Below, one piece after another: positions 6,433 through 23,704 of a stretch of DNA of 38,673 nt. Source of the DNA: Bacilli bacterium. GTDB lineage: Bacteria; Bacillota; Bacilli; Paenibacillales; DASWUO01. Below the pieces are notes generated by a model. The model was given only the letters and a program-made list of their open reading frames with translations, made no database searches and was not told the origin of the DNA. Every line of letters begins with the position of its first letter. Positions within the stretch are counted from its first letter, which is position 1. The stretch covers positions 1 to 38,673 of the forward strand of contig DASWUO010000059.1 of NCBI GenBank assembly GCA_036401615.1, written 5' to 3'. Made by a program: the position numbers and the translations under genes.

Positions 6433-9400
6433 ACAGGCTCAATCTCCATCAACAAATCGCCGGATTCCACGGTGTTGTCTACTTTAACGTGAATCTCTTT
6501 GACGATGCCGTCAAATGGCGCCTGCATGGTCATTTCCATCTTCATCGCTTCATTGGCCAGAAGGTGATCGCCTCTCTTGATGTGATCGCCTTTTTTCACC
6601 ATGATCTTAAGCACCTTGCCTGGCATGGAGGCGCCGATGTGTCCCCGGTTATCCAGATCGGCCTTCAGCCTCTTTTCCATGGTGATTTTCGCCGAAGCGT
6701 CACGAATGACAATCTCACGGGGTTGGCCGTTCATCTCAAAATAAATCGTACGCATCCCATCCGGCTGGACTACTCCTACGGAAACGAGCTTGACCATCAG
6801 GGTCTTGCCCTGGGCAATTTCTATGGCAATTTCTTCCCCCAGCAGCATGCCATAGAAGAAGGTTGGTGTGTCCATCACGGATAAGTCGCCAAATTCCAAA
6901 GTTTTTATCAACATTTTCTTGTACACATCAGGGTACATGATATAGGACATCACATCATATTCCGTGAAGCTGCGTTCAAGCTCTTTCTCTAATTGGTTAC
7001 GAACTTCGTTTAAATCCACCGGCGTAAGCAGTTCTCCCGGCCTGCGGGTGAAGCTTTCGCCGCCTTTTAAGATAATCTGCTGCAATTTCTCCGGAAAGCC
7101 CCCGGGAGGCTGACCCAGGTATCCTTGAAACATCTGGATGACGGATTCCGGGAAATCCAAATTTTCTCCCCGGGCATACACGTCTTCTTCGGAGAGATTA
7201 TTTTGTACCATGAATAAAGCCATGTCCCCTACAACCTTAGAAGAAGGGGTTACTTTGACGATATCCCCAAACATCAGGTTTACCACCCGGTAAGTTTCCT
7301 TGACCTCTTCCCATCGATGGCCGAGCCCGACAGATTTGGCCTGCTGCTGTAAATTGCTGTACTGCCCGCCAGGCATTTCGTGAAGATAAATTTCCGGATT
7401 GCTCGATTTCATCCCTATTTCGAAGGAGGCATAATACGGTCGAATATCCTCCCAATAGTCGGATAACTTCTGGAATTGCCGGGGATCCAATCCTGAGGCA
7501 TACTCGTTATTTTCTAAAGCATAGATTAAGGAATTTAAATTCGGCTGGGATGTGAGCCCGGACATGGAACTCAACGCCGCATCAACAATATCCACGCCGG
7601 CTTCACAAGCTTTAATCAATAGAGCTCCGCCGTTTCCACTCGTATCATGGGTATGCAGATGGATGGGTATGCCGATTTCTTCCTTCAAAGCTTTGATCAA
7701 CACATAGCCGGCATAGGGTTTCAACAAGGAAGCCATATCCTTGATGGCCAGAATATGTGCGCCCGCTTTTTCCAGCTCCTTGGCTAGTTGTACGTAGTAT
7801 TTCAGATTATATTTGTCCCGCCCGGGATCAAGAATATCTCCTGTATAACAGATCGAGGCCTCCGCAATCTTGTCGGTTTCCCGCACGGCTTCAATGGCTA
7901 AGCGCATGCCGTCCATGCTGTTTAAGCTGTCAAATATACGGAATATATCCATACCCGCACCAGCTGACAATTGTACGAATTTTTTGATCACATTATCCGG
8001 ATAATTGCTGTAACCCACAGCGTTTGCACCGCGAAACAGCATTTGAAAGAGGATATTCGGGATCTTCTCGCGCAGCTTGATCAAACGCTCCCATGGATCT
8101 TCGTTCATAAACCGCATGGAGGTGTCGAAGGTTGCCCCACCCCACATTTCCAGTGAGAATAAATCGGCCCCAAGCTTGCCGGTTTCCTCGGCTATCTGAA
8201 GAAGGTCATAAGTGCGTACACGTGTGGCTAATAGAGATTGGTGCGCATCACGAAAAGTCGTATCGGTAATCAGCACTTTCTTCTGTTCTTTAATCCATTG
8301 AACAAGCCCTTCCGGCCCCCGTTGATCCAAGATTTGTTTCGTGCCCGAAGGATATGGCTGCGAAATCGAGGTTTTCGGAATACGTGTTTCCGTATAAGCC
8401 GGTTTCACTACATCCTGCAAAATGCCTGGGTGGCCGTTGATGATGGTTTGGCCGATGTATTTTAAAATTTTTGTGCCGCGGTCCTGCTTCTTGCTGAATT
8501 CAAATAATTCGTTTTTGGTATCTATAAAAGAGGTATCATAATTGCCGCTCAGAAAGTCCGGATGCTGCACTACATTTTCGAGGAAAGGGATGTTGGTTTT
8601 AACGCCGCGGATACGGAACTCCCGTAAGGTTCGCAGCATTTTGCTGGCAGCTTTGTCGAAGGAATGGGCATGTGTGGATACTTTAACAAGCAGGGAATCG
8701 TAGAAAGGGGTGATGGTCGCGCCCGGTGCGCCATTGCCCGCATCCAACCGCACTCCAAACCCTTCTGCTGTTCTGTAAGCCAGTAAACGGCCAATGTCCG
8801 GCAGGAAATTCTTTTCCGGATCCTCCGTAGTTACCCTGCATTGGATAGCAAAGCCTCTCATCTGCACGGATTCCTGAGATGGGATATTAATTTCATCATC
8901 TGCCAAGGCGTAACCTTCGGCGATACGAATTTGCGTTTGGACAATGTCGATACCGGTGACCAATTCAGTAATGGTATGTTCAACCTGGATACGGGGATTG
9001 ACTTCGATAAAATAAAACTGGCCGTCAGGCGTTACAAGAAACTCTATTGTACCTGCATTAATATAATTGGTGTTCTGAGCGAGCCTTAATGCTGCATTAC
9101 ATATCTCATTCCTCTGCTCTTCCGTTAAAGCAAGGCTTGGCGCAACTTCTACCACCTTCTGATGACGCCGCTGGATCGAGCAATCCCGTTCAAACAGATG
9201 CACGGCATTTCCGTGGCTGTCGGCTATGACTTGCACTTCAATATGTTTGGTGTTAATCAGGTATTTCTCTAAGTAAACTGCCGCGTTACCGAAGGAAGAC
9301 TTGGCCTCGGATCGAGCACTTTCAAGAGCTTGCTGAAGCTCATCCGCTTTATTAACAATCCTCATACCGCGCCCGCCGCCGCCGGATGCAGCCTTAATGA

Positions 9401-10003: not shown

Positions 10004-11044
10004 TCAACTAATTTCAAGATGCTGGGTTTGCACCGCCTCTAACCATTGTTCATATTTCTTCAAAGCCATTCCCTGCTCCAACGCATATTTGGCATGATAT
10101 ATCCCTTCTTCAACGGAGTCTACTTTTTCCGCAATCCATAGACGAAGGGCGCTGTTCAACAGCACCATATTGTGGTAATACATCTCGCTTTCACCTCTAA
10201 GCACCTTAAGCGCCGTTTGCGCCTGAAGAGCCGCTGTCCATTCCACCTCGGGCATTTCCGCTTGCAGTTCGAAAATTTCCGGATCTACGATGTAGAGTTC
10301 ACTTGCACCATCCCGTACAATGTAGGTTCTGGTTCTTTTATCAAGCGCCAGATCCTCAGACCCTTCTACCCCTTGTAAAATAATACCCCGCTTAATCCCG
10401 AGCTGTATGATGAGTTTAGACATCTTTTCGAACACGGTTCCATGAAATACGCCAACTGCCATATAAGGCGCTTCCGATAACCGCAGCAGCTTCTCAACGG
10501 TGTTAAACACGGTTCTGACCCCCAACTCCTGTCGAATTCCCCGAAGACCGCCTAATGGCGGACACCAATGTTCGGTTGATATGAATAATACACCGCCTTT
10601 TTCAGCTCCGGCAAGATGTGCATTTCTGGAATCGGCACCTGTGGAAACTCCAATTTCGTGTAACAAATCCGTTAAAGTAATCCCCATTTTTGGAGGAAGC
10701 GGAGCACTGCCATGCAGCGTTACAGGTAAACCGCAGGATGCCAGGACAAAAGCAGTCGGAAAAGTAGCGATGAATGAACGCTTGCGCCCGTCATAAGGGC
10801 CGGCACAATCAAATCCACCCTTTATAGGATGTACAGTACTTGTATTGCGGCAAACGTCAACAAAAGCTTGAATTTCTTCCGTAGATTCCATCTTGATTCT
10901 CTCAGCAATCAGGAACGCCCCGATCTGCGCCGGAGTAGCTTTGCCTGTGATAATCATCCCAGCTCCCATAACTGCTTCTTCATAAGTCAGGTCACGGGCG
11001 CCCTTCTTACCCCTTCCAACTTCCTTTAATAAGGAAAACATCAT
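10004..11044 (-). CDS. TrpD2 (YbiB-like) protein: AnPRT fold without the catalytic motifs
   Basis: 346 aa. The N-terminus LKEVGRGKKGARDLTYEEA resembles E. coli YbiB. The AnPRT motifs GTGGD and KHGNR are replaced by AGPYDG and LHGS. The ATG overlaps the upstream ANTAR stop (ATGA). Confidence 0.75.
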   Translation of the reverse strand: MMFSLLKEVGRGKKGARDLTYEEAVMGAGMIITGKATPAQIGAFLIAERIKMESTEEIQAFVDVCRNTSTVHPIKGGFDCAGPYDGRKRSFIATFPTAFVLASCGLPVTLHGSAPLPPKMGITLTDLLHEIGVSTGADSRNAHLAGAEKGGVLFISTEHWCPPLGGLRGIRQELGVRTVFNTVEKLLRLSEAPYMAVGVFHGTVFEKMSKLIIQLGIKRGIILQGVEGSEDLALDKRTRTYIVRDGASELYIVDPEIFELQAEMPEVEWTAALQAQTALKVLRGESEMYYHNMVLLNSALRLWIAEKVDSVEEGIYHAKYALEQGMALKKYEQWLEAVQTQHLEIS

Positions 11045-11661
11045 TTCTTTCGTCCCCCTCTTGTTTCTTCTTGAAGAAGTTGAAATACTTTCACAATCGA
11101 GGATGCTACATCGGACATTCTTTTTCTTTCATTCATAGCTTGTTTGCGCAAAAACTCATAGGCTTCCGCCTCAGAAATCTTCTTCATATCACATAGTATT
11201 TTCTTGGCTTGATCGATCCACTTGCGTTCTTCCAGTTTGGACAACAGCAGCTCTCTTTCCAGCTGCCACTGTGTGCGTTCCATATAGTGCTTGGAGCTTA
11301 GATGCAGCACCCAATTGATTTCTGCATCGTTCATTCCCATGCATAACATACCGTCCAAATCCAACTCAAGACTGCATTCACTGCTGCCTGAAGTAGATTC
11401 ATCAAACCACCACAGAAGAGGCAGGTTGCGCCAAGCCAGTATTTTTGTTCCCCACTTGATTAAATCAGGAATGGCCATTTGAAGAATAACGGCATCTATT
11501 GCCCGAAGGTTTTGTTTAACTTCTATTTCCGTATGCGCGTATATCACGCGGTAACCCATAAGCGCCAGTTTATGGGCAGGGCTTTTATGATCGGCTATGT
11601 TATTGTTTACAGGATCTTTTATAATTAAAAAAGATTGCAGCAATACTAACACTCCTTTCAT
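11041..11661 (-). CDS. ANTAR-domain RNA-binding antiterminator with pseudo-receiver N-terminal domain (AmiR/NasT-like)
   Basis: The C-terminus WIDQAKKILCDMKKISEAEAYEFLRKQAMNERKRMSDVASSIV is ANTAR. In the receiver-like half, Gln sits at the phospho-acceptor position (VILQMAIP). AAAGGAG lies just inside the track ORF, so TTG 11643 may be the true start. Confidence 0.85.
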   Translation of the reverse strand: MKGVLVLLQSFLIIKDPVNNNIADHKSPAHKLALMGYRVIYAHTEIEVKQNLRAIDAVILQMAIPDLIKWGTKILAWRNLPLLWWFDESTSGSSECSLELDLDGMLCMGMNDAEINWVLHLSSKHYMERTQWQLERELLLSKLEERKWIDQAKKILCDMKKISEAEAYEFLRKQAMNERKRMSDVASSIVKVFQLLQEETRGGRKK

Positions 11662-16054: not shown

Positions 16055-16234
16055 ACTTACCCCTCCTGTAAATTATTTAGCCTCTCGGCATTCGTTGAGC
16101 CAATACGGGACGAAGAATTCCTTGTACTGCTAAAATCATGTTGCGCAATTTCACAACTTCCGCTGCATTTTAATGTAAGCGCGCTTTCTGTATCCCCTCC
16201 TTATCCCGAGTGTAACTAGGCATTTTCATGTTAA

Positions 16235-16286
16235 TAAAGATAACACAAAAGGCCTATCCCTCTACATCGCTGTAGGGAGGATAGGC
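16235..16286 (-). terminator. Leader intrinsic terminator of the nrt-tat operon
   Basis: Minus-strand RNA GCCUAUCCUCCCUACA-gcga-UGUAGAGGGAUAGGC (about 15 bp with one bulge) followed by CUUUUGUGUUAUCUUUAUU. It lies about 285 nt upstream of the SBP start. Confidence 0.7.
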
Positions 16287-16325
16287 TTCATTGCCCTTAA
16301 GGAGTGACACATCATTGTGCTCCTT
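16283..16325 (-). promoter_or_regulatory. ANTAR-type dual hexaloop element (nrt leader)
   Basis: P1 is AAGGAGCAC[AAUGAU]GUG(uca)CUCCUU. P2 is GGGC[AAUGAA]GCCU. Both loops have A at position 1 and G at position 4. The P2 3' arm is the first 4 nt of the terminator 5' arm. Confidence 0.7.
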
Positions 16326-16337
16326 GTTGATATTGTT

Positions 16338-16366
16338 ATTATAAATGGCATTTTCGCATATGTCAA
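16338..16366 (-). promoter_or_regulatory. Sigma-A promoter of the nrt-tat operon
   Basis: On the minus strand: TTGACA (16366-16361), a 17-nt spacer, then TATAAT (16343-16338). Both hexamers match consensus. Confidence 0.7.
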
Positions 16367-16377
16367 TAAACATAACA
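16361..16377 (-). promoter_or_regulatory. TnrA/GlnR-type box overlapping the -35 of the nrt promoter
   Basis: The minus strand reads TGTTATGTTTATTGACA, which equals TGTNA-N7-TNACA exactly. Confidence 0.5.
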
Positions 16378-16433
16378 TTAAAATTTAAAATTCATTAATT
16401 ATGCGACCTTACTCGTCTTTTTTTCTCTTTATA

Positions 16434-16450
16434 TGTCATGTTTTCTTACA
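16434..16450. promoter_or_regulatory. TnrA/GlnR-type box
   Basis: TGTCATGTTTTCTTACA matches TGTNA-N7-TNACA. It sits inside the longer palindrome TATATGTCA...TTACATATA. Confidence 0.5.
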
Positions 16451-16541
16451 TATAAAGACTTCTGATCACCATTGGCGATAAAAAGTTACGCATCTTCTTC
16501 AGTTTTTGTATTTTACTCCAATGTCATCGATCAAAAGATTG

Positions 16542-16558
16542 TGTCAATATTAATAACA
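16542..16558. promoter_or_regulatory. TnrA/GlnR-type box
   Basis: TGTCAATATTAATAACA matches TGTNA-N7-TNACA. Confidence 0.5.
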
Positions 16559-16583
16559 TGAAGAAGATATACGAGAATTTTTA

Positions 16584-16600
16584 CGTTATGTTTATTGACA
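16584..16600 (+). promoter_or_regulatory. TnrA/GlnR-type box (one mismatch) overlapping the -35 of the nas promoter
   Basis: CGTTATGTTTATTGACA. 16 of its 17 nt are identical to the box at 16361-16377 read on the other strand. Confidence 0.45.
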
Positions 16601-16624
16601 TGACATAGTGAATCGTCTTATAAT
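16595..16624 (+). promoter_or_regulatory. Sigma-A promoter of the nasA-nasD-nasE-nasC operon
   Basis: TTGACA (16595-16600), an 18-nt spacer, then TATAAT (16619-16624). Confidence 0.7.
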
Positions 16625-16666
16625 CAAGTTATCACAATAAAGGTGACTGCATATTGATTAATGAAT

Positions 16667-16703
16667 TTAAACACAACGTTGTGTTTAATTGGCAATGAGG
16701 CCA
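16667..16703 (+). promoter_or_regulatory. ANTAR-type dual hexaloop element (nas leader)
   Basis: P1 is UUAAACAC[AACGUU]GUGUUUAA (8 bp). P2 is UGGC[AAUGAG]GCCA. Both loops are A1/G4. The P2 3' arm GCCA lies within the terminator 5' arm AGGCCAU. Confidence 0.7.
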
Positions 16704-16754
16704 TTTCGGGATCCATAAGGATCTTCAGATGGCCTTTTTATGTGTTTTATTTTT
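16698..16754 (+). terminator. Leader intrinsic terminator of the nas operon
   Basis: AGGCCAUUUCGGGAUCC-auaa-GGAUCUUCAGAUGGCCU pairs 17 positions with one C-C mismatch and three G-U wobbles. It is followed by UUUUAUGUGUUUUAUUUUU. Confidence 0.75.
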
Positions 16755-16788
16755 AAAAAATAGAAAAAATTTCAAGGGAGAATCTACT

Positions 16789-18027
16789 ATGGAAGAAAAA
16801 AGTTTTTTAAAAAGCGGCCACAAGCCATCATTGTTCAGTTCTTTTCTTTATTTCGACATCAGTTTTATGGTTTGGGTGCTAATGGGTCCACTGGCAGTTG
16901 TGATTATGAGCGATTTTCAAATGGATGCAGCGCAAAAAGCTAATTTAGTTGCTCTTCCAATTTTAGGCGGTTCCATTCTTCGATTGGTGCTTGGTTGGAT
17001 GACGGATTATATCGGTCCCAAAAAGACTGGACAAATTGGTTTAATTGTTACCATGATCCCTTTAGTAATGGCTTGGCAATTTGTGGAGACTTTAAGCGGA
17101 TTGTATATCACTGCATTATTGCTGGGTGTTGCCGGAGCGAGTTTCGCGGCTGCCTTGCCGCTGGCAAGCCGTTGGTATCCGCCGCAGCATCAGGGTTTGG
17201 CGATGGGCATAGCCGGAGCGGGAAACAGCGGCACGATTATTACTACGCTGTTCGCTAATCGAATTGCCCAGCATTATGGGGATTGGCATATAGTCTTTGG
17301 ATTCGCCCTGATTCCTGTGGTTCTGACCTTTATAGCTTTTACCTTATTGGCTAAGGATAGCCCGGATCAGCCTGCACCCAAGAAGTTTGCCGACTATGCC
17401 GTCGTTCTAAAACAAAAGGATACTTGGTTATTCTGTATGCTCTATAGTGTCACCTTCGGCGGATTTGTGGGGATGGCAAGTTATTTAACGATATTTTTTA
17501 ATACTCAATATGGCTTGGCTCCAATTGCTGCTGCAAATTTTACAACAATCTGCGTCATTGCGGGCAGTTTCTTCCGCCCGGTAGGCGGGTGGCTTTCCGA
17601 TAAAGTTGGCGGCATTCGGATGTTGACAATTCTTTATCTAGGCATTGCCCTGATGCTTGCCGGAGTTTCCACTTTGCCTGCGCTTGGACTTACTACTGCG
17701 ATGCTTTTTGTCGGGATGATGTGTATGGGGATGGGGAATGGCGCAGTATTCCAACTAGTACCGCAGCGGTTTAAGCAGGAAATTGGGATTATGACAGGAA
17801 TTGTTGGAGCGGCTGGAGGCCTTGGGGGATATTTCTTGCCTAAGATATTAGGAAACTTAAAGCTGTCCTCCGGTTCTTTCACTCCTGGGTTTCTGGTACT
17901 TAGTGTCATTGCCGTCAGCTGCATTGGGATCCTCCTTATTGCGCAAGGCCAATGGAAGAAAACCTGGATCGGCCAAGGCGGAAAAGCCAAGAAAGATGTG
18001 GTTGGGGCGCAAGTACAAGCCAGTTAG
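16789..18027 (+). CDS. nasA: MFS nitrate/nitrite transporter (NarK/NasA type)
   Basis: 12-TM MFS with NarK-like Gly-rich motifs (GGSILRLVLGWMTDYIGPKK, GIAGAGNSG). I moved the start to ATG 16789 (AAGGGAG 8 nt upstream) because the track ATG 16729 lies inside the terminator stem. Confidence 0.9.
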   Translation: MEEKSFLKSGHKPSLFSSFLYFDISFMVWVLMGPLAVVIMSDFQMDAAQKANLVALPILGGSILRLVLGWMTDYIGPKKTGQIGLIVTMIPLVMAWQFVETLSGLYITALLLGVAGASFAAALPLASRWYPPQHQGLAMGIAGAGNSGTIITTLFANRIAQHYGDWHIVFGFALIPVVLTFIAFTLLAKDSPDQPAPKKFADYAVVLKQKDTWLFCMLYSVTFGGFVGMASYLTIFFNTQYGLAPIAAANFTTICVIAGSFFRPVGGWLSDKVGGIRMLTILYLGIALMLAGVSTLPALGLTTAMLFVGMMCMGMGNGAVFQLVPQRFKQEIGIMTGIVGAAGGLGGYFLPKILGNLKLSSGSFTPGFLVLSVIAVSCIGILLIAQGQWKKTWIGQGGKAKKDVVGAQVQAS

Positions 18028-18052
18028 TAAATTAAAAGGAGCTGAAATCACC

Positions 18053-20473
18053 ATGGTACAGATGAAGAAGTTAGTTCTCATAGGAAACGGAATGGCAGGG
18101 GTCAACACAGTTGAACATATCTTGAAATTAGCGCCGAATAAATTTGATATTACGATTTTCGGTACTGAACCTCACCCCAATTACAACCGCATCCTGCTTT
18201 CCTACGTGCTTTCAGGCGATTCCAGTGTTAATGATATTGTTATCAACAGCTATGAATGGTATGAATCCAATGGAATTACCCTCTATACGGACCACACTGT
18301 AACTGAAATTAACACTGAGCAACAAACCGTTACCAGCAATCAAGGAGTTTGTGTTGCTTATGATCAACTTATTATCGCAACCGGGTCCAATCCCTTTATG
18401 CTTCCCCTGCCTGGTGCAGATAAAGAAGGCGTCATGGCTTACCGTACAATACAGGATTGCGAGAAGATGATTGAAGCCTCTAAAACATTAAAAAAAGCCA
18501 TTGTTATCGGCGGCGGTTTACTTGGTCTGGAAGCGGCAAGAGGCTTTCTGAATTTAGGCATGAAAGTCGATGTCGTGCATATTTGCGGCTCTATTATGGA
18601 ACGCCAACTGGATCCAACAGCCTCCAGCATGTTGCGTGAAGCTTTAGAGGCACAAGGAATGAACTTTTTGCTGGAAAAACAATCTGCAGAAATCATCGGA
18701 AACGAGCATGTCACCGGGCTTAAATTTAAAGACGGCACTAAAGCCGACGGCGATTTAATCGTTATGGCTGTTGGGATCAGACCAAATGTAGAGTTGGCTA
18801 AAAGAGCCGGTATTGAAGTCAATCCTGGAATTGTTGTCGATGACTATCTTCGAACCAATATTCCCAATGTATACGCAGTAGGTGAATGCGCCCAGCACCG
18901 CGGGATCGCATACGGCTTGGTAGCCCCTCTGTATGAGCAAGGTGCGGTTCTCGCTAAACATATTACTGAAGTAGAAACGGCACCGTATGAAGGATCCATT
19001 CTCTATACCAAACTTAAAGTATCCGGTGTAGATGTTTTCTCGGGCGGTCAATTTATGGAAAGCCCCGGAACCAAAGCCATTCGCATCCATGACGAATTTG
19101 CCGGAATTTATAAAAAAGTGCTGATCAAGGAAAATAAAATCATCGGGGCTGTTTTATTCGGAGACACTTCCGATGGAACCAGACTGATGCAGATGATTCG
19201 TAATCAAACGGATATCAGCGGCTATGATAAAACAGCCCTTCTTATTGAAACAGGAGGCAACACCAACGACTCCTCGAACGTTGCGGAAATGACGGATGAT
19301 AGCATTATTTGCGGCTGCAACGGCGTAAGCAAAGGTACCATTTGTTCAGCGATCAAAACCCAAGGTTTATCTACTGTAGAAGAAGTAAAGAATTGCACTA
19401 CAGCTTCACGCTCGTGCGGGGGCTGCAAGCCGCTCGTCAGTGATTTATTAGCTTATACACTTGGTGATCAATATGATAAAACGGCAGTGAAAGAATCAAT
19501 GTGTGGATGCACCACATTGTCCCGTGATGAAATTCTTGAGCAAATCCGTGAAAAAGAATTATTACACATTCGCGAAGTCATGAACGTACTTGAATGGAAG
19601 ACCGCGGAAGGCTGTTCCAAATGCAGACCTGCCCTTAATTACTACCTTGCCATGATCAATCCGACAGAATATGTGGATGACAGCACTTCCCGTTTTGTCA
19701 ACGAACGGATGCACGCTAATATTCAAAAAGATGGCACCTACTCTGTTATCCCGCGCATTTATGGCGGAGTGACCAACCCTGCCGAGCTTAAACGCATTGC
19801 TGAGGTGGCCGAGAAATTTAACATCCCTACAGTAAAATTTACAGGAGGCCAGCGTCTTGATCTGCTGGGTGTGAAGAAAGAAGATTTGACCCAAGTTTGG
19901 GAAGCACTTGATATGCCTTCCGGTTATGCTTATGGCAAAGCTTTACGAACGGTCAAAACATGTGTAGGCCAGGATTATTGCCGCTTTGGCACCGCAGATT
20001 CCATGGGTATGGGAATACGGATGGAAAAACGCTTTGAACGTTTAAACACACCCGCTAAAGTGAAGATGGCCGTATCCGGTTGTCCGCGAAATTGTGCAGA
20101 GTCCGGAATTAAGGATTTAGGAGTTGTTGCCATTGATGGCGGCTGGGAGCTCTATGCCGGCGGTAATGGAGGAGTAAAGATACGTGCAGGCGATCTCCTT
20201 GCAACTGTAAAAACGGAAGACGAGGTCATCGAATATACCGAGGCTTATTTACAATATTATCGAGAGACTGCCATTTATTTAGAAAGAACCTCAGATTGGG
20301 TAAAACGTGTTGGCATTCAACCTATCCGGGATGTTATCCTGGATGCTGAAAAACGGATTGGACTTTGTGATAGAATGAATACTGTCTTATCTGTAACAAC
20401 GGATCCTTGGAAAGAGGCAATTGATAACGAAAAAATTCAAAAAGACTTATACGAGGTTATTGAAATAAAATAG
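18053..20473 (+). CDS. nasD: Assimilatory NAD(P)H nitrite reductase large subunit
   Basis: FAD/NAD fold (KLVLIGNGMAG), two BFD-like 2Fe-2S modules (CGCNGVSKG..CGGC and CGCTTLSRD..CSKC), and siroheme/4Fe-4S cysteines (CVGQDYCRFG, SGCPRNCAES). Start set to ATG 18053 after the nasA stop, behind AAAGGAG. Confidence 0.93.
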   Translation: MVQMKKLVLIGNGMAGVNTVEHILKLAPNKFDITIFGTEPHPNYNRILLSYVLSGDSSVNDIVINSYEWYESNGITLYTDHTVTEINTEQQTVTSNQGVCVAYDQLIIATGSNPFMLPLPGADKEGVMAYRTIQDCEKMIEASKTLKKAIVIGGGLLGLEAARGFLNLGMKVDVVHICGSIMERQLDPTASSMLREALEAQGMNFLLEKQSAEIIGNEHVTGLKFKDGTKADGDLIVMAVGIRPNVELAKRAGIEVNPGIVVDDYLRTNIPNVYAVGECAQHRGIAYGLVAPLYEQGAVLAKHITEVETAPYEGSILYTKLKVSGVDVFSGGQFMESPGTKAIRIHDEFAGIYKKVLIKENKIIGAVLFGDTSDGTRLMQMIRNQTDISGYDKTALLIETGGNTNDSSNVAEMTDDSIICGCNGVSKGTICSAIKTQGLSTVEEVKNCTTASRSCGGCKPLVSDLLAYTLGDQYDKTAVKESMCGCTTLSRDEILEQIREKELLHIREVMNVLEWKTAEGCSKCRPALNYYLAMINPTEYVDDSTSRFVNERMHANIQKDGTYSVIPRIYGGVTNPAELKRIAEVAEKFNIPTVKFTGGQRLDLLGVKKEDLTQVWEALDMPSGYAYGKALRTVKTCVGQDYCRFGTADSMGMGIRMEKRFERLNTPAKVKMAVSGCPRNCAESGIKDLGVVAIDGGWELYAGGNGGVKIRAGDLLATVKTEDEVIEYTEAYLQYYRETAIYLERTSDWVKRVGIQPIRDVILDAEKRIGLCDRMNTVLSVTTDPWKEAIDNEKIQKDLYEVIEIK

Positions 20474-20516: not shown

Positions 20517-20861
20517 ATGAGTTTACAGACAGCGACTGCAATATGGGTAGAAGTTGCCTCCTACGATGAACTTCCTGTGAACACAGGTAAGACCGTGCGT
20601 TATCAGGGGCAAGAGGTGGCGTTATTCAAACTAAGCAACGGCAATCTCAAGGCGATTGAAAATCGATGTCCCCATAAGAATGGCGTCCTTGCTGAGGGGA
20701 TCGTATGCGATGACCATGTATTCTGCCCCATGCATGACCGCAAAATCCAACTTTCGACAGGGCTGGTACAAGCGCCTGATACGGGATGTGTAAAAACTTA
20801 TAATGTGACTGTAAAAGAGGGTAAAGTGTATATTGAATTTACAAAGGCGACTTTTTCATAA
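20517..20861 (+). CDS. nasE: Nitrite reductase small subunit (Rieske-like)
   Basis: 114 aa with CPHKNG...CPMHD Rieske-type ligands, immediately downstream of nasD. Confidence 0.9.
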   Translation: MSLQTATAIWVEVASYDELPVNTGKTVRYQGQEVALFKLSNGNLKAIENRCPHKNGVLAEGIVCDDHVFCPMHDRKIQLSTGLVQAPDTGCVKTYNVTVKEGKVYIEFTKATFS

Positions 20862-20876
20862 CTGGGGTGATTTGAA

Positions 20877-23048
20877 ATGACTACTATAAATTCGACAGCG
20901 TCCTTATCCCAAACTTTACTTCCAGCCTTATCTTCTATTAAAACATCCCATTGTTGTTTTTGCAGCATGCAGTGCGAAATACAATTAGAGCCGAGCGATA
21001 AGGAACCCGGGCTAGTTGTTAAACCAAGCCCGGATTTCCCTGTTGCTACAGGGCGGCTCTGTCAAAAAGGATTTAATGTTCTGGATCATGTGCTGCATCC
21101 TTCTCGAATAACCGTCCCCCTAAAGAGGAGAAATACTGAAACTGGAAGTGTTCCCAATGAGTTCGCTGAAAAATATAACCCTGCCGTGTGGCAGCAAAAC
21201 GATTGGAATACAACACTAACAGAAATTGCCTCGAAAATAAAAGCAATTCAAGCTGATCATGGGCATAATTCAGTTGCTGTATACGGCGGCGGTTCCGTAA
21301 CCAATGAAGTTTGTTATTTGCTCGGCAAATTTACAAGAGTTGCCCTCCGATCCAAATATATAGATTATAACGGGCGATTTTGTATGTCTTCTGCTGCTGC
21401 AGCCGCGAATAAGGCATTTGGCGCCGATCGCGGTATGACAATGCCATTATCGGAAATACCAAAAGCCAAGTATATCCTGCTGGCTGGAACTAATATTGCC
21501 GAATGCCAACCTACCCTAATGCCTTACCTAATGGAAGCTAAGAAAAGCGGGGCAACCATCGTTACGATAGATCCCCGCCATACGATGACCTCCAAACTTG
21601 CCGATATTCACGTCCGCCTTCAACCCGGCTTTGACTCTGTCTTTGTTAACGGCTTACTCCATGTGATCATATCGGAGAAGTTGTATAACTCACCTTATGT
21701 TGAATTGCACACAAATGGATTAACCCAACTGATGGAAGCTGTAAAATCTTTCACACCGGCTCGGGTTGAGGCCCTTACTGGTGTACTAGAAGCCGTTATC
21801 CGGACTATCGCCCGCGGTTTCGCAAATGCTGAAACAGGAATGGTTCTAACTGCCCGCGGCCTTGAGCAGCAAGTGAATGGTGTAGAAAACACACTAAATT
21901 ATATCAATCTGAGCTTGCTTACGGGCAAGATGGGTAAGCCCGGCTGCGGTTTTGGCTCCATTACGGGTCAAGCCAATGGCCAAGGAGGGCGGGAGCACGG
22001 GCAGAAGGCCGACCAACTCCCGGGTTACAGGCTTATAGAGGACCCGGCCGCTCGGGAGCACGTGGCTAAAGTCTGGGGTATCCACCCTGATGAACTCCCC
22101 GGGAAAGGTGTCTCTGCCTATGAAATGATTCAAAAAATAGATCAAGGTGAAATAAAGGCGATGATTGTCCTCGGATCCAATCCCGTCGTTTCCTGTCCAA
22201 ACAGTCATTTTGTTGAGCAAGCTTTAAAAAAGTTAGAGCTGTTGGTTGTGGTTGACTTATTCGAAACCGAAACTGCCGCCTATGCCCACTGGCTTCTTCC
22301 CGGCTCCTCCTTTCTTGAAGGCGAAGGCACACTGACGAATCTCGAAGGACGTGTATTTCATCGGCCTCAAGCGCTGGACTTACCCGGCGAAACCAAGCTT
22401 GATTATAAATTGATTTGTGAATTGGCTGAATACTTGGGTCGGGGGGATTTCTTCCAGTATAACTCCATTGAAGATGTATTTAATGAACTTACGGCTGCTA
22501 CTGCCGGAGGCATTGCAGATTACAGCGGCATCACTTATCAGCGATTAATAGAAGAAAAGGGCGTATTCTGGCCCTGTCCTTCTGAAAACCACCCGGGTAC
22601 CCCTACCATGTTCATTCATGGTTTTTACCACCCCGATGGGAAAGCAAAGCTATTTGGTATAGAGCCCCAGATGCCCGCTGAACCGATTGACCGGGAATAT
22701 CCTTATATTCTTACTACTGGTCGGGTGGCTAATCATTATCTAAGCGGAGTCCAAACACGGCGTTCCCCGGGGTTAAATAAGAAAGCTCCGGTCCCTGTTG
22801 CCGAAATCCACCCATGGTTAGCCAAGAAGATTGGCCTCGGCATAGAAAGCAAGATTCGCATCACCAGCCGGCGCGGCTCTCTTATTGTTCAAGCAAAGAT
22901 TTCAGAATCCATCCAACCCCAAACCGTATTTGTCCCCTTTCACTGGGGAGGGGAATTGTCGATTAACCGCCTCACCAATGATGCCCTTGATCCCACCAGC
23001 CGGATGCCGGAATTTAAGATTTGTGCCGTACAGATCGAGTCCACTTAA
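20877..23048 (+). CDS. nasC: Assimilatory nitrate reductase catalytic subunit (molybdopterin oxidoreductase)
   Basis: N-terminal 4Fe-4S motif HCCFCSMQC...RLCQKG, a MopB core and a C-terminal molybdopterin dinucleotide-binding barrel. No signal or Tat motif, so it is cytoplasmic. Confidence 0.9.
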   Translation: MTTINSTASLSQTLLPALSSIKTSHCCFCSMQCEIQLEPSDKEPGLVVKPSPDFPVATGRLCQKGFNVLDHVLHPSRITVPLKRRNTETGSVPNEFAEKYNPAVWQQNDWNTTLTEIASKIKAIQADHGHNSVAVYGGGSVTNEVCYLLGKFTRVALRSKYIDYNGRFCMSSAAAAANKAFGADRGMTMPLSEIPKAKYILLAGTNIAECQPTLMPYLMEAKKSGATIVTIDPRHTMTSKLADIHVRLQPGFDSVFVNGLLHVIISEKLYNSPYVELHTNGLTQLMEAVKSFTPARVEALTGVLEAVIRTIARGFANAETGMVLTARGLEQQVNGVENTLNYINLSLLTGKMGKPGCGFGSITGQANGQGGREHGQKADQLPGYRLIEDPAAREHVAKVWGIHPDELPGKGVSAYEMIQKIDQGEIKAMIVLGSNPVVSCPNSHFVEQALKKLELLVVVDLFETETAAYAHWLLPGSSFLEGEGTLTNLEGRVFHRPQALDLPGETKLDYKLICELAEYLGRGDFFQYNSIEDVFNELTAATAGGIADYSGITYQRLIEEKGVFWPCPSENHPGTPTMFIHGFYHPDGKAKLFGIEPQMPAEPIDREYPYILTTGRVANHYLSGVQTRRSPGLNKKAPVPVAEIHPWLAKKIGLGIESKIRITSRRGSLIVQAKISESIQPQTVFVPFHWGGELSINRLTNDALDPTSRMPEFKICAVQIEST

Positions 23049-23143
23049 GGATCCTCTGACTCAAATTTATCTATATTAATTGATTAATTTCCGATATAAT
23101 AAATGGATACTGCATATCATTATATATGGGGAGGAAGTTAACA

Positions 23144-23704
23144 ATGGAGGGTATAGAGGATAGAAAAATATTTGTTTTTACCGGCCCGGATGGATCCGGC
23201 CGCAAAACCGTTGCCCATCACGCAGGAACTTCACACCAATTAAAAAGAGTTTTATCCTATACTACCCGACCAAGCAGGTCTTATGAGACAGACGGCATAG
23301 ATTACCATTTTATCACCCGGGAGCAATTTATCGAGGCTGACCAGAATGGGGAATTTATCGAAACCCTGGAGATTGAAGGGGTTTACTACGGAATCAAATC
23401 CAAAGAAATTGAAGATATGTTTCAGAAGCATCCTTACGTATACCTTATCTTAAACCGCCAGGGTTCGGATCTGGTGAAGGCGGTTTTTGGGGATCAAGTA
23501 GTACGTATCTTGATTTACGCCGATCGCAATAAGGTCATGAGCCGATTGTTGGAGCGGGGAGATACGACGGAGATTATTTATAAAAACATGGCTCGTTATG
23601 AAGAGGAAATGGCTTATTTGAAACAATGCGATTACAATGTTGAAAATTATGAGTTAGAAGAAACCGTTGAAGAAGTTACTGAGATTTTAAAAAAATATAT
23701 TTAA
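23144..23704 (+). CDS. Guanylate-kinase-family paralogue with atypical P-loop
   Basis: SYTTRPSRSYETDGIDYHFITREQF matches the GMP-binding block of Gmk. The P-loop reads GPDGSGRKT rather than GPSGxGK(G/S)T. Start set to ATG 23144, 6 nt after GGGGAGGAAG; the track start is 23126. Confidence 0.68.
   Translation: MEGIEDRKIFVFTGPDGSGRKTVAHHAGTSHQLKRVLSYTTRPSRSYETDGIDYHFITREQFIEADQNGEFIETLEIEGVYYGIKSKEIEDMFQKHPYVYLILNRQGSDLVKAVFGDQVVRILIYADRNKVMSRLLERGDTTEIIYKNMARYEEEMAYLKQCDYNVENYELEETVEEVTEILKKYI

Follow-up and report, generated by a model that had tools for sequence, protein, structure and literature searches.

A probable ANTAR-dependent attenuator in the nasA leader of an uncultured Bacilli genome, and a candidate pseudo-receiver regulator paired with a TrpD-fold protein

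Introduction

An active dimer of an ANTAR protein recognises hairpin hexaloops whose first base is A and whose fourth base is G (A1 and G4), binding a first hairpin (P1) and then a second (P2) as they emerge, and its hold on P2 keeps an overlapping terminator from forming (PMC3369931, PMC8934654). Here we compare with this scheme the leader of nasA, the first gene of a nitrate assimilation operon in an uncultured Bacilli bacterium (contig DASWUO010000059.1, assembly GCA_036401615.1; the whole stretch of 38,673 nucleotides (nt) that was analysed is called the window). An earlier sequence-only reading had described this leader as a textbook ANTAR substrate overlapping an intrinsic terminator.

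In the AmiC-AmiR pair, the sensor releases the ANTAR protein upon ligand binding. A similar arrangement is reported for NasS-NasT of Paracoccus, Pseudomonas and Azotobacter, in which the sensor frees the ANTAR protein upon nitrate or nitrite binding (PMC3795266). In the nasF leader of Klebsiella oxytoca, loop A1 and G4 are required (PMC3369931). The linker between the two hairpins of the Enterococcus faecalis eut leaders is 5-12 nt long, and induction is impaired when it is shortened to 3 nt, or is 14 nt (PMC3369931); in the regulator EutV, Tyr164 and Met172 position the hexaloop (PMC8934654). The closest described precedent is that of Ramesh et al. 2012, whose Table S2 lists covariance-predicted ANTAR substrates before the divergent nitrate/nitrite transporter and nitrite reductase genes of Paenibacillus polymyxa (PMC3369931). 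In the same species, the nasA promoter region is bound by GlnR, as revealed by chromatin immunoprecipitation with quantitative PCR, and nasA is de-repressed in a glnR mutant (PMC9948412). The literature searched for ANTAR control of nasA in Paenibacillus turned up GlnR studies alone.

Results

Two hexaloop hairpins and an overlapping terminator precede nasA

The leader and its surroundings hold the following features, all on the + strand.

16595..16624, +: sigma-A type promoter, 12/12 consensus match (TTGACA at 16595, 18 nt, TATAAT at 16619-16624)
16632..16646, +: P0, a weak 5'-end hairpin, TCAC-AAUAAAG-GUGA, with a heptaloop and no G4
16667..16688, +: P1, 8-bp (base-pair) stem, hexaloop AACGUU (A1, G4)
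16690..16703, +: P2, candidate antiterminator hairpin, UGGC-AAUGAG-GCCA, -5.1 kcal/mol
16697..16736, +: predicted intrinsic terminator stem-loop, 17 pairs, about -25 kcal/mol
16737..16754, +: U-rich tract past the terminator, read from the sequence
16789..18027, +: nasA, NarK-family nitrate/nitrite transporter of the major facilitator superfamily (MFS), 412 amino acids (aa), first gene of nasA-nirB-nirD-nasC

P1 consists of TTAAACAC (16667-16674), the loop AACGTT (16675-16680) and GTGTTTAA (16681-16688), and is separated by a single base, U16689 (T in the DNA), from P2, which is composed of TGGC (16690-16693), the loop AATGAG (16694-16699) and GCCA (16700-16703). Both hexaloops (AACGUU and AAUGAG in the RNA) carry A1 and G4, and the stems of 8 bp and 4 bp form tandem stem-loops of at least 3 bp each, with a linker of 1 nt and a spacing of 19 nt from loop A1 to loop A1. 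Including its loop, P1 is a perfect 22-bp DNA palindrome, TTAAACACAACGTTGTGTTTAA. The hairpins and their A1/G4 loops were confirmed base for base as the sequence-only reading had given them, and the consensus promoter it placed upstream was found as well.

Transcription would start near 16631. In the RNAfold centroid of the predicted leader (16631-16790), just P1 and a long hairpin at 16697-16736 are formed, and P0 is part of neither the minimum free energy fold nor the centroid fold. The long hairpin pairs 16697-16706 with 16727-16736 and 16708-16714 with 16719-16725 (17 pairs, 10 + 7), contains one 1x1 mismatch and an AUAA loop, and UUUU-A-UGUGUUUUAUUUUU comes after it. In isolated folds, the terminator segment reached -25.1 kcal/mol (z = -5.1), with none of 200 shuffles as stable, and P2 reached -5.1 kcal/mol, with 16 of 200 shuffles folding equally well. 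P2 and the terminator are mutually exclusive because the 5' arm of the terminator takes up G16697-A16703, which comprises loop positions 4-6 and the entire 3' arm of P2; the folding energies predict that the terminator outcompetes P2 unless something holds P2. Folding thereby bore out the earlier proposals that the 3' arm of P2 lies within the 5' arm of a 17-pair stem followed by a U-run, and that stabilising P2 would preclude the terminator. The built-in terminator scan overlooked this terminator and that of the second element described below because of internal mismatches in their stems, and folding was needed instead.

Leader-peptide attenuation was considered and rejected: a 31-codon open reading frame (ORF) that starts at ATG 16662, spans the hairpins and ends with TAA at about 16755 lacks a Shine-Dalgarno sequence, and no sign of such an ORF was seen in the leaders of relatives, though reading frames were not compared there.

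The element is conserved and covaries upstream of nasA in relatives

Relatives were collected by a NasA scan with one genome per species, which yielded 17 loci (68-82% identity), mostly from Paenibacillus, plus Effusibacillus, an Anoxybacillus metagenome-assembled genome (MAG) and Pyrinomonas. The same kind of element lies upstream of nasA in 15 of them, and the two loci without it (L004 and L012) have no ANTAR gene in the stretch examined. All 26 elements examined, the two of the window included, have a stable hairpin starting in or at the 3' arm of P2, followed in nearly all by a U-run. The lineage consensus is xCAC-AAyGnn-GUGx, a linker of 1-9 nt (17 nt in one element) and GGC-AAnGnn-GCC. 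Loop spacing is 19-24 nt in most Bacillales-group elements, including another case of 19 nt (L011), and the outlier is L007a with about 33 nt and the 17-nt linker. The P1 loop, A1 included, is not strictly invariant, being GAUGAU in some second units (L016, L017) and AAUUGG in one P1 (L010), and it is usually not palindromic in the relatives (AAUGAU, AACGUC, AAUGGG, AAGGAU).

Covariation was counted on a 21-sequence alignment (A2) with the P1/P2 structure, from which, as from A3, two Effusibacillus elements and L007a had been left out, the former being misaligned and the latter stretched in the MAFFT alignment A1. In A2, 85.3% of the cells are paired compared with 74.0 ± 1.7% after shuffling, and the covariation score is 0.329 compared with 0.130, neither value being reached by any of 500 shuffles, a control that overstates significance because the sequences are related. 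Sliding the 3' partners by 1-3 columns, a control free of that problem, as is the leave-out search described below, lowered pairing to 29-43%. P1 pair 4-17 occurs as AU, UA, GC, UG, CG and GU with zero mispairs, pair 5-16 as CG, UA and UG, and the fourth P2 pair varies with compensation and is unpaired in 6 of the 21 sequences.

Two side observations were made on these leaders. In L007, L008, L009, L013, L014, L016 and L017, two complete attenuators stand in tandem upstream of nasA (at about 6725-6900), each with its own terminator, and the first tandem unit in these Paenibacillus resembles the minus-strand element of the window. In L003, L005, L006, L011 and L015, the position of P0 is occupied, directly past the -10 box, by a hexaloop hairpin (G)UCAC-AAnGnn-GUGA(C), and partial covariance-model matches to this type of hairpin were obtained in L005 and L015. 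Judged by this comparison, P0 of the window appears to be a degenerate counterpart of the canonical hexaloop hairpin of the relatives, and it may be what is left of the first attenuator of a tandem pair, or a 5' hairpin for stabilisation or recruitment.

A second element of the same design faces the divergent transporter operon

The same intergenic region holds, on its minus strand (16325-16233), a second complete ANTAR-type attenuator that was absent from the sequence-only reading.

16338..16366, -: divergent sigma-A type promoter, 12/12, from the promoter scan
16299..16325, -: P1 of the second element, AAGGAG-CAC-AAUGAU-GUG-(uca bulge)-CUCCUU
16283..16296, -: P2 of the second element, GGGC-AAUGAA-GCCU
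16233..16286, -: predicted terminator and U-rich tract, stem 16286-16252, about -27 kcal/mol for the folded segment

Both of its loops (AAUGAU and AAUGAA) carry A1 and G4, the loop A1-to-A1 spacing is 24 nt, and the 3' arm of P2 lies within the 5' arm of the terminator, which reads GCCUAUCC...GGAUAGGC (16286-16252), then UUUUGUGUU. The element sits upstream of an operon (15950-11857, minus strand) that encodes an NrtA-like (NMT1_2) ATP-binding cassette (ABC) transporter and ends with tatC.

When a loose regular expression was used to look for any pair of A..G.. hexaloop hairpins, many matches fell in coding regions; as the scan was unspecific, covariance models were used instead. Model R2 was built solely from 19 leaders of other genomes and run unfiltered over the whole 38.7-kb window, with the matches below, whose E-values are rough, as are those of model R1, because calibration was shortened.

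16668-16704, +: nasA leader, 38.3 bits, E 1.7e-7
16323-16282, -: second element, 31.2 bits, E 7.6e-6
opposite strand (-) of the palindromic P1: 17.4 bits, E 0.013
next unrelated match in the window: 8.4 bits, E 1.6

The match on the opposite strand arises because P1 is palindromic. The element is thus specific to two leaders in the window and not a product of chance. Among the relatives, L001 scored 16.3 bits with R2, so that its membership is weaker, and the elements of Effusibacillus and Halalkalibacter gave weak scores of 16-17 bits.

The window encodes an ANTAR regulator coupled to a TrpD-fold protein

An ANTAR gene is present in the window, and the genome therefore encodes a potential reader for the proposed RNA; the ANTAR gene overlaps the gene downstream of it.

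11041..11643, -: ANTAR regulator, 200 aa from TTG 11643 (ATG 11661 in the ORF list), with predicted pseudo-receiver, coiled coil and ANTAR domain
10004..11044, -: TrpD-fold (Glycos_transf_3) paralogue sharing 4 nt with the ANTAR gene; putative partner in signal sensing

TTG 11643 is preceded by AAAGGAG and the resulting 200 aa agree with the public annotation, so the real start of the regulator is probably this codon and not ATG 11661. The ANTAR domain (PF03861, E 3.2e-17, residues 141-190) is the sole Pfam match in the protein. Residues 57-190 align to EutV (PDB 6wsh, E 1.9e-10), with the N-terminal part matching the EutV receiver, and the protein also aligns to NasR (PDB 4akk, E 1.9e-5) and to Rv1626 (1s8n). 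The Tyr and Met equivalent to Tyr164 and Met172 of EutV are kept. The Pfam search gave no Response_reg match, and the residue aligned with the phospho-acceptor Asp of EutV is non-acidic (Q/H/C/S/A, aligned and read by eye) in the window protein and in 13 orthologues, which argues that the N-terminal domain is a pseudo-receiver. Relatives of the protein are annotated as 'response regulator NasT'.

The TrpD-fold paralogue scores below the TrpD cut-offs, and its motifs for phosphoribosyl pyrophosphate and metal are altered (GTGGD to GPYDG, KHGN to LHGS, GMDE to GSED), the altered forms being invariant in 14 orthologues. By tblastn, the ANTAR and TrpD-fold genes are paired and directly divergent from nasA in 13 of the 17 loci, with 42-50% (ANTAR) and 57-67% (TrpD-fold) identity to the window proteins. 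ANTAR homologues led to two more distant Bacillaceae, Aquibacillus albus (L018) and Halalkalibacter alkaliphilus (L019), in which the pair (TrpD-fold orthologues at L018 8606-9643 and L019 8612-9667) is divergent from a transporter, namely an MFS gene in the former and an NMT1_2-permease-ATPase-TatA-TatC operon in the latter; the intergenic regions contain model matches to dual hairpins of 32.0 bits (E 4e-6) and 16.8 bits (E 0.014), respectively. Taking the window, the 13 loci (Paenibacillus spp.), Aquibacillus and Halalkalibacter together, the TrpD-fold gene lies directly downstream of the ANTAR gene in 16 of 16 cases, and in all 16 the pair adjoins nitrate transport or assimilation genes with a dual-hairpin leader.

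With no canonical Asp to phosphorylate, the regulator compares most naturally with partner switches such as AmiC-AmiR and NasS-NasT, and the translationally coupled, conserved TrpD-fold protein would, speculatively, be the obvious candidate partner. Whether it has replaced NasS/AmiC as a cytoplasmic sensor of nitrate, nitrite or a nitrogen metabolite, forming with the pseudo-receiver ANTAR protein an undescribed partner switch, is a tentative proposal to which we assign a rather low likelihood. No paper on a paired ANTAR protein and anthranilate-phosphoribosyltransferase-like protein turned up in the literature searched, which does not prove absence.

GlnR/TnrA-type boxes crowd the intergenic region

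Perfect boxes of the form TGTNAN7TNACA occur 6 times in the window, where 0.44 are expected, and four of the six lie within 16229-16558.

16229-16245, 16361-16377, 16434-16450 and 16542-16558: perfect GlnR/TnrA-type boxes, nasA/nrt intergenic region
16584..16600, +: CGTTATGTTTATTGACA, a GlnR/TnrA-type box with a single mismatch that overlaps the nasA -35 hexamer

The box at 16361-16377 overlaps the -35 hexamer of the minus-strand promoter, and that at 16229-16245 overlaps the U-tract of the minus-strand terminator. The boxes of the window are nearly identical to the GlnR site of P. polymyxa nasA/nasD1, GTGTTATGTATATTGACAT. Nitrogen status probably acts at initiation through GlnR, and the ANTAR switch at elongation.

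Start codons and neighbouring genes

The start of nasA in the mechanical ORF list, ATG 16729, falls within the terminator's 3' arm. ATG 16789 has a ribosome-binding site (RBS), AAGGGAG, at 16774-16780; all 17 NasA homologues align from residue 1-4 of the protein starting there, and the public annotation of the contig gives a NasA of 412 aa, which corresponds to the same start. These data support the earlier suggestion that ATG 16789 is the true start.

The remaining genes of the two operons and their surroundings are as follows.

17903-20473, + (ORF): NirB-type nitrite reductase, downstream of nasA
20517-20861, +: NirD, downstream of nirB
20877-23048, +: molybdopterin assimilatory nitrate reductase (nasC), downstream of nirD
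23126-23704, +: guanylate-kinase-like gene, downstream of the nitrate reductase gene
15950-14673, -: NMT1_2 (NrtA-like) binding protein with a twin-arginine translocation (Tat) signal, followed by permease and ATPase genes
12681-11857, -: TatC, end of the ABC-transporter operon

The mechanical NirB ORF has GTG 17903 as its first codon and shares 125 nt with nasA; because homologues align only from about residue 45-49, the real nirB start probably lies near 18040. The NrtA-like binding protein has the twin-arginine signal RREFLK, and its operon has its own tatC (tatA and tatC in Halalkalibacter, L019 3529-7534), a gene content that points to Tat export dedicated to a subunit of a nitrate-type ABC transporter. 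In the 290-nt stretch separating the minus-strand terminator from the NrtA-like gene, there is a 35-codon ORF (16054-15947, minus strand), MKVADFSKFINEEIKVLQLTIMAPLAAAMIGEEIL, with a good RBS and a stop codon that overlaps the start of the NrtA-like gene (ATGA).

Discussion

Proposed mechanism

We consider the nasA leader to be an ANTAR-dependent transcription attenuator acting by antitermination, with a probability of roughly 85%, because every sequence-level requirement is present twice and conserved. The ANTAR assignment, first made from the letters of one leader, is backed by the ANTAR gene, the second element and the conservation in 15 of 17 loci with covariation in P1. Transcription would start at about 16631 from the consensus promoter, with the GlnR-type box over the -35 hexamer providing nitrogen-status control. 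By default, the nascent RNA would fold the terminator at 16697-16736, and transcripts would stop at about 16737-16745 in the U-tract, before nasA. By analogy with the described systems, the active ANTAR regulator (11643-11041) would bind as a dimer to the emerging P1 hexaloop and then to that of P2; the weak P2 (16690-16703) would be held closed, G16697-A16703 would be unable to nucleate the terminator, and RNA polymerase would read through into nasA-nirBD-nasC. The minus-strand element (16325-16233) would gate the divergent NrtA-like ABC-transporter/tatC operon and, being of the same design, would join both operons in one small regulon. The signal is probably nitrate or nitrite, and it is possibly sensed through the TrpD-fold partner, since the regulator has no phospho-acceptor Asp.

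Several findings weigh against this interpretation. The linker of 1 nt and the loop spacing of 19 nt differ from the 5-12 nt linkers of eut and the 24 nt of eutP, and RNAfold closes A16675-U16680, turning P1 into a 9-bp stem with a tetraloop, whereas EutV has been proposed to exclude tetraloops (PMC8934654). The caveat of the sequence-only reading that P1 may close in this way was well founded, and together with the short linker it makes the label 'textbook' an overstatement. The top two P1 pairs (A-U and C-G) and three P2 pairs (GGC/GCC) are invariant in the 21 elements and, since they never vary, give no covariation support; their invariance may reflect sequence-specific recognition or common descent. 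The Rfam covariance scan that had been suggested as a check gave no Rfam 15 family at the gathering score in the whole window, and up to E = 10 at 16500-16900 only noise (small nucleolar RNA and long non-coding RNA models, E 2.7-7), the presence of an ANTAR-target model in Rfam not being established. The ANTAR gene lies 5 kb from the nasA leader, and a hairpin and U-run after tatC, read from the sequence, suggest that the ANTAR/TrpD-fold pair is its own transcription unit.

Alternative explanations

The weakness of P2, the frequency with which a loose A..G.. dual-hairpin pattern arises by chance and a linker atypically short by the standard of eut would all suit a terminator that is constitutive, leaky or under another factor, with P1 and P2 as incidental hairpins unread by any ANTAR protein. 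We regard this as very improbable, since 26 related leaders carry the specific motif (CAC-AAnGnn-GUG, GGC-AAnGnn-GCC and an overlapping terminator) with covarying P1, and since this motif occurs twice in the window and nowhere else there, and tracks the presence of the ANTAR gene. The perfect palindrome of P1 with its loop, matched by the model on the opposite strand as well, in a region dense in protein-binding boxes, also raised the idea that P1 is an operator at which a dimeric DNA-binding repressor would form a roadblock past the promoter, with the terminator unconnected to it. In relatives, however, the P1 loop is usually non-palindromic, the stem changes by compensatory substitution without keeping any half-site sequence, and what is conserved is strand-specific, namely A1/G4 on the transcribed strand with P2 and the terminator directly 3'. 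The operator reading was rejected on the covariation and the non-palindromic loops, and it is the least probable of the alternatives.

An ANTAR protein could also bind the hexaloops and mainly affect RNA stability, RNA processing or a Rho-dependent event, and not the intrinsic terminator. Under the revised minimal definition one hexaloop suffices as an ANTAR target, roles outside termination are known (translation control in actinobacteria and sequestration by EutX), and relatives carry a hexaloop hairpin at the P0 position at the very 5' end. The overlap of P2 and terminator, kept in all related elements examined, is nevertheless the signature of attenuation, and with the RBS 70 nt downstream of P2, translation control is unlikely; we therefore give such a mode of action very little weight.

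Relation to described systems

The nasA leader fits the published definition of an ANTAR substrate (Ramesh et al. 2012), judged on its sequence, except for the 1-nt linker. It is most like the P. polymyxa matches, which also comprise a dual-hairpin match overlapping a terminator upstream of a nitrate/nitrite MFS transporter gene, two divergent matches in one intergenic region and GlnR boxes at the same promoters, in the same order, Bacillales. The divergent partner there is a nitrite reductase, whereas in the window it is the NrtA-like ABC transporter with tatC, and the host of the window is an uncultured Bacilli MAG whose NasA is 68-82% and whose ANTAR protein is 42-50% identical to those of the Paenibacillus and other relatives examined. 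The P. polymyxa matches are themselves computational only and were compared here by the published list (PMC3369931). With the eutP, eutG, eutS and eutA leaders of E. faecalis the element has in common the two A1/G4 hexaloop hairpins and a P2 whose 3' arm is also part of an intrinsic terminator; linker and spacing differ as given above, P1 has 8 bp and is not a mini-hairpin, and the pathway is a different one.

The regulator likewise combines features of several known proteins. Its ANTAR domain aligns with that of EutV and keeps the RNA-contact Tyr and Met, but its receiver is not of the EutV type, and with no phospho-acceptor Asp it would not be switchable by a kinase such as EutW. As in K. 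oxytoca nasF/NasR, a nitrate assimilation operon would be controlled by ANTAR antitermination at a leader terminator, and NasR (4akk) is among the matches of the window protein; the window protein, however, has no NIT domain (ANTAR alone in Pfam) and so is not of the NIT-ANTAR type, and its sensing would have to differ from that of NasR. With NasS-NasT and AmiC-AmiR it has in common a receiver-like and ANTAR regulator with a second protein encoded adjacent to it. That neighbour is a TrpD-fold protein with altered motifs and not a sensor of the periplasmic-binding-protein fold like NasS and AmiC, and the only NrtA-like protein of the window is a transporter subunit with a Tat signal.

Implications

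The RNA element is of an already known type, and conceptually nothing new, given that ANTAR matches at nitrate genes of Paenibacillus were already on record in 2012. For annotation, the start of nasA is fixed at 16789, and the analysis defines a proposed two-operon ANTAR regulon in an uncultured Bacilli genome, in which two layers of control probably govern nitrate assimilation: initiation would be regulated by GlnR and elongation by ANTAR. The comparative set also yields a clean lineage-specific consensus, CAC-AAyGnn-GUG and GGC-AAnGnn-GCC followed by a terminator. Any novelty lies in the ANTAR/TrpD-fold pairing: a pseudo-receiver ANTAR protein with a TrpD-fold partner is an unstudied architecture, and it could give Firmicutes a new means of sensing nitrogen oxyanions or nitrogen status.

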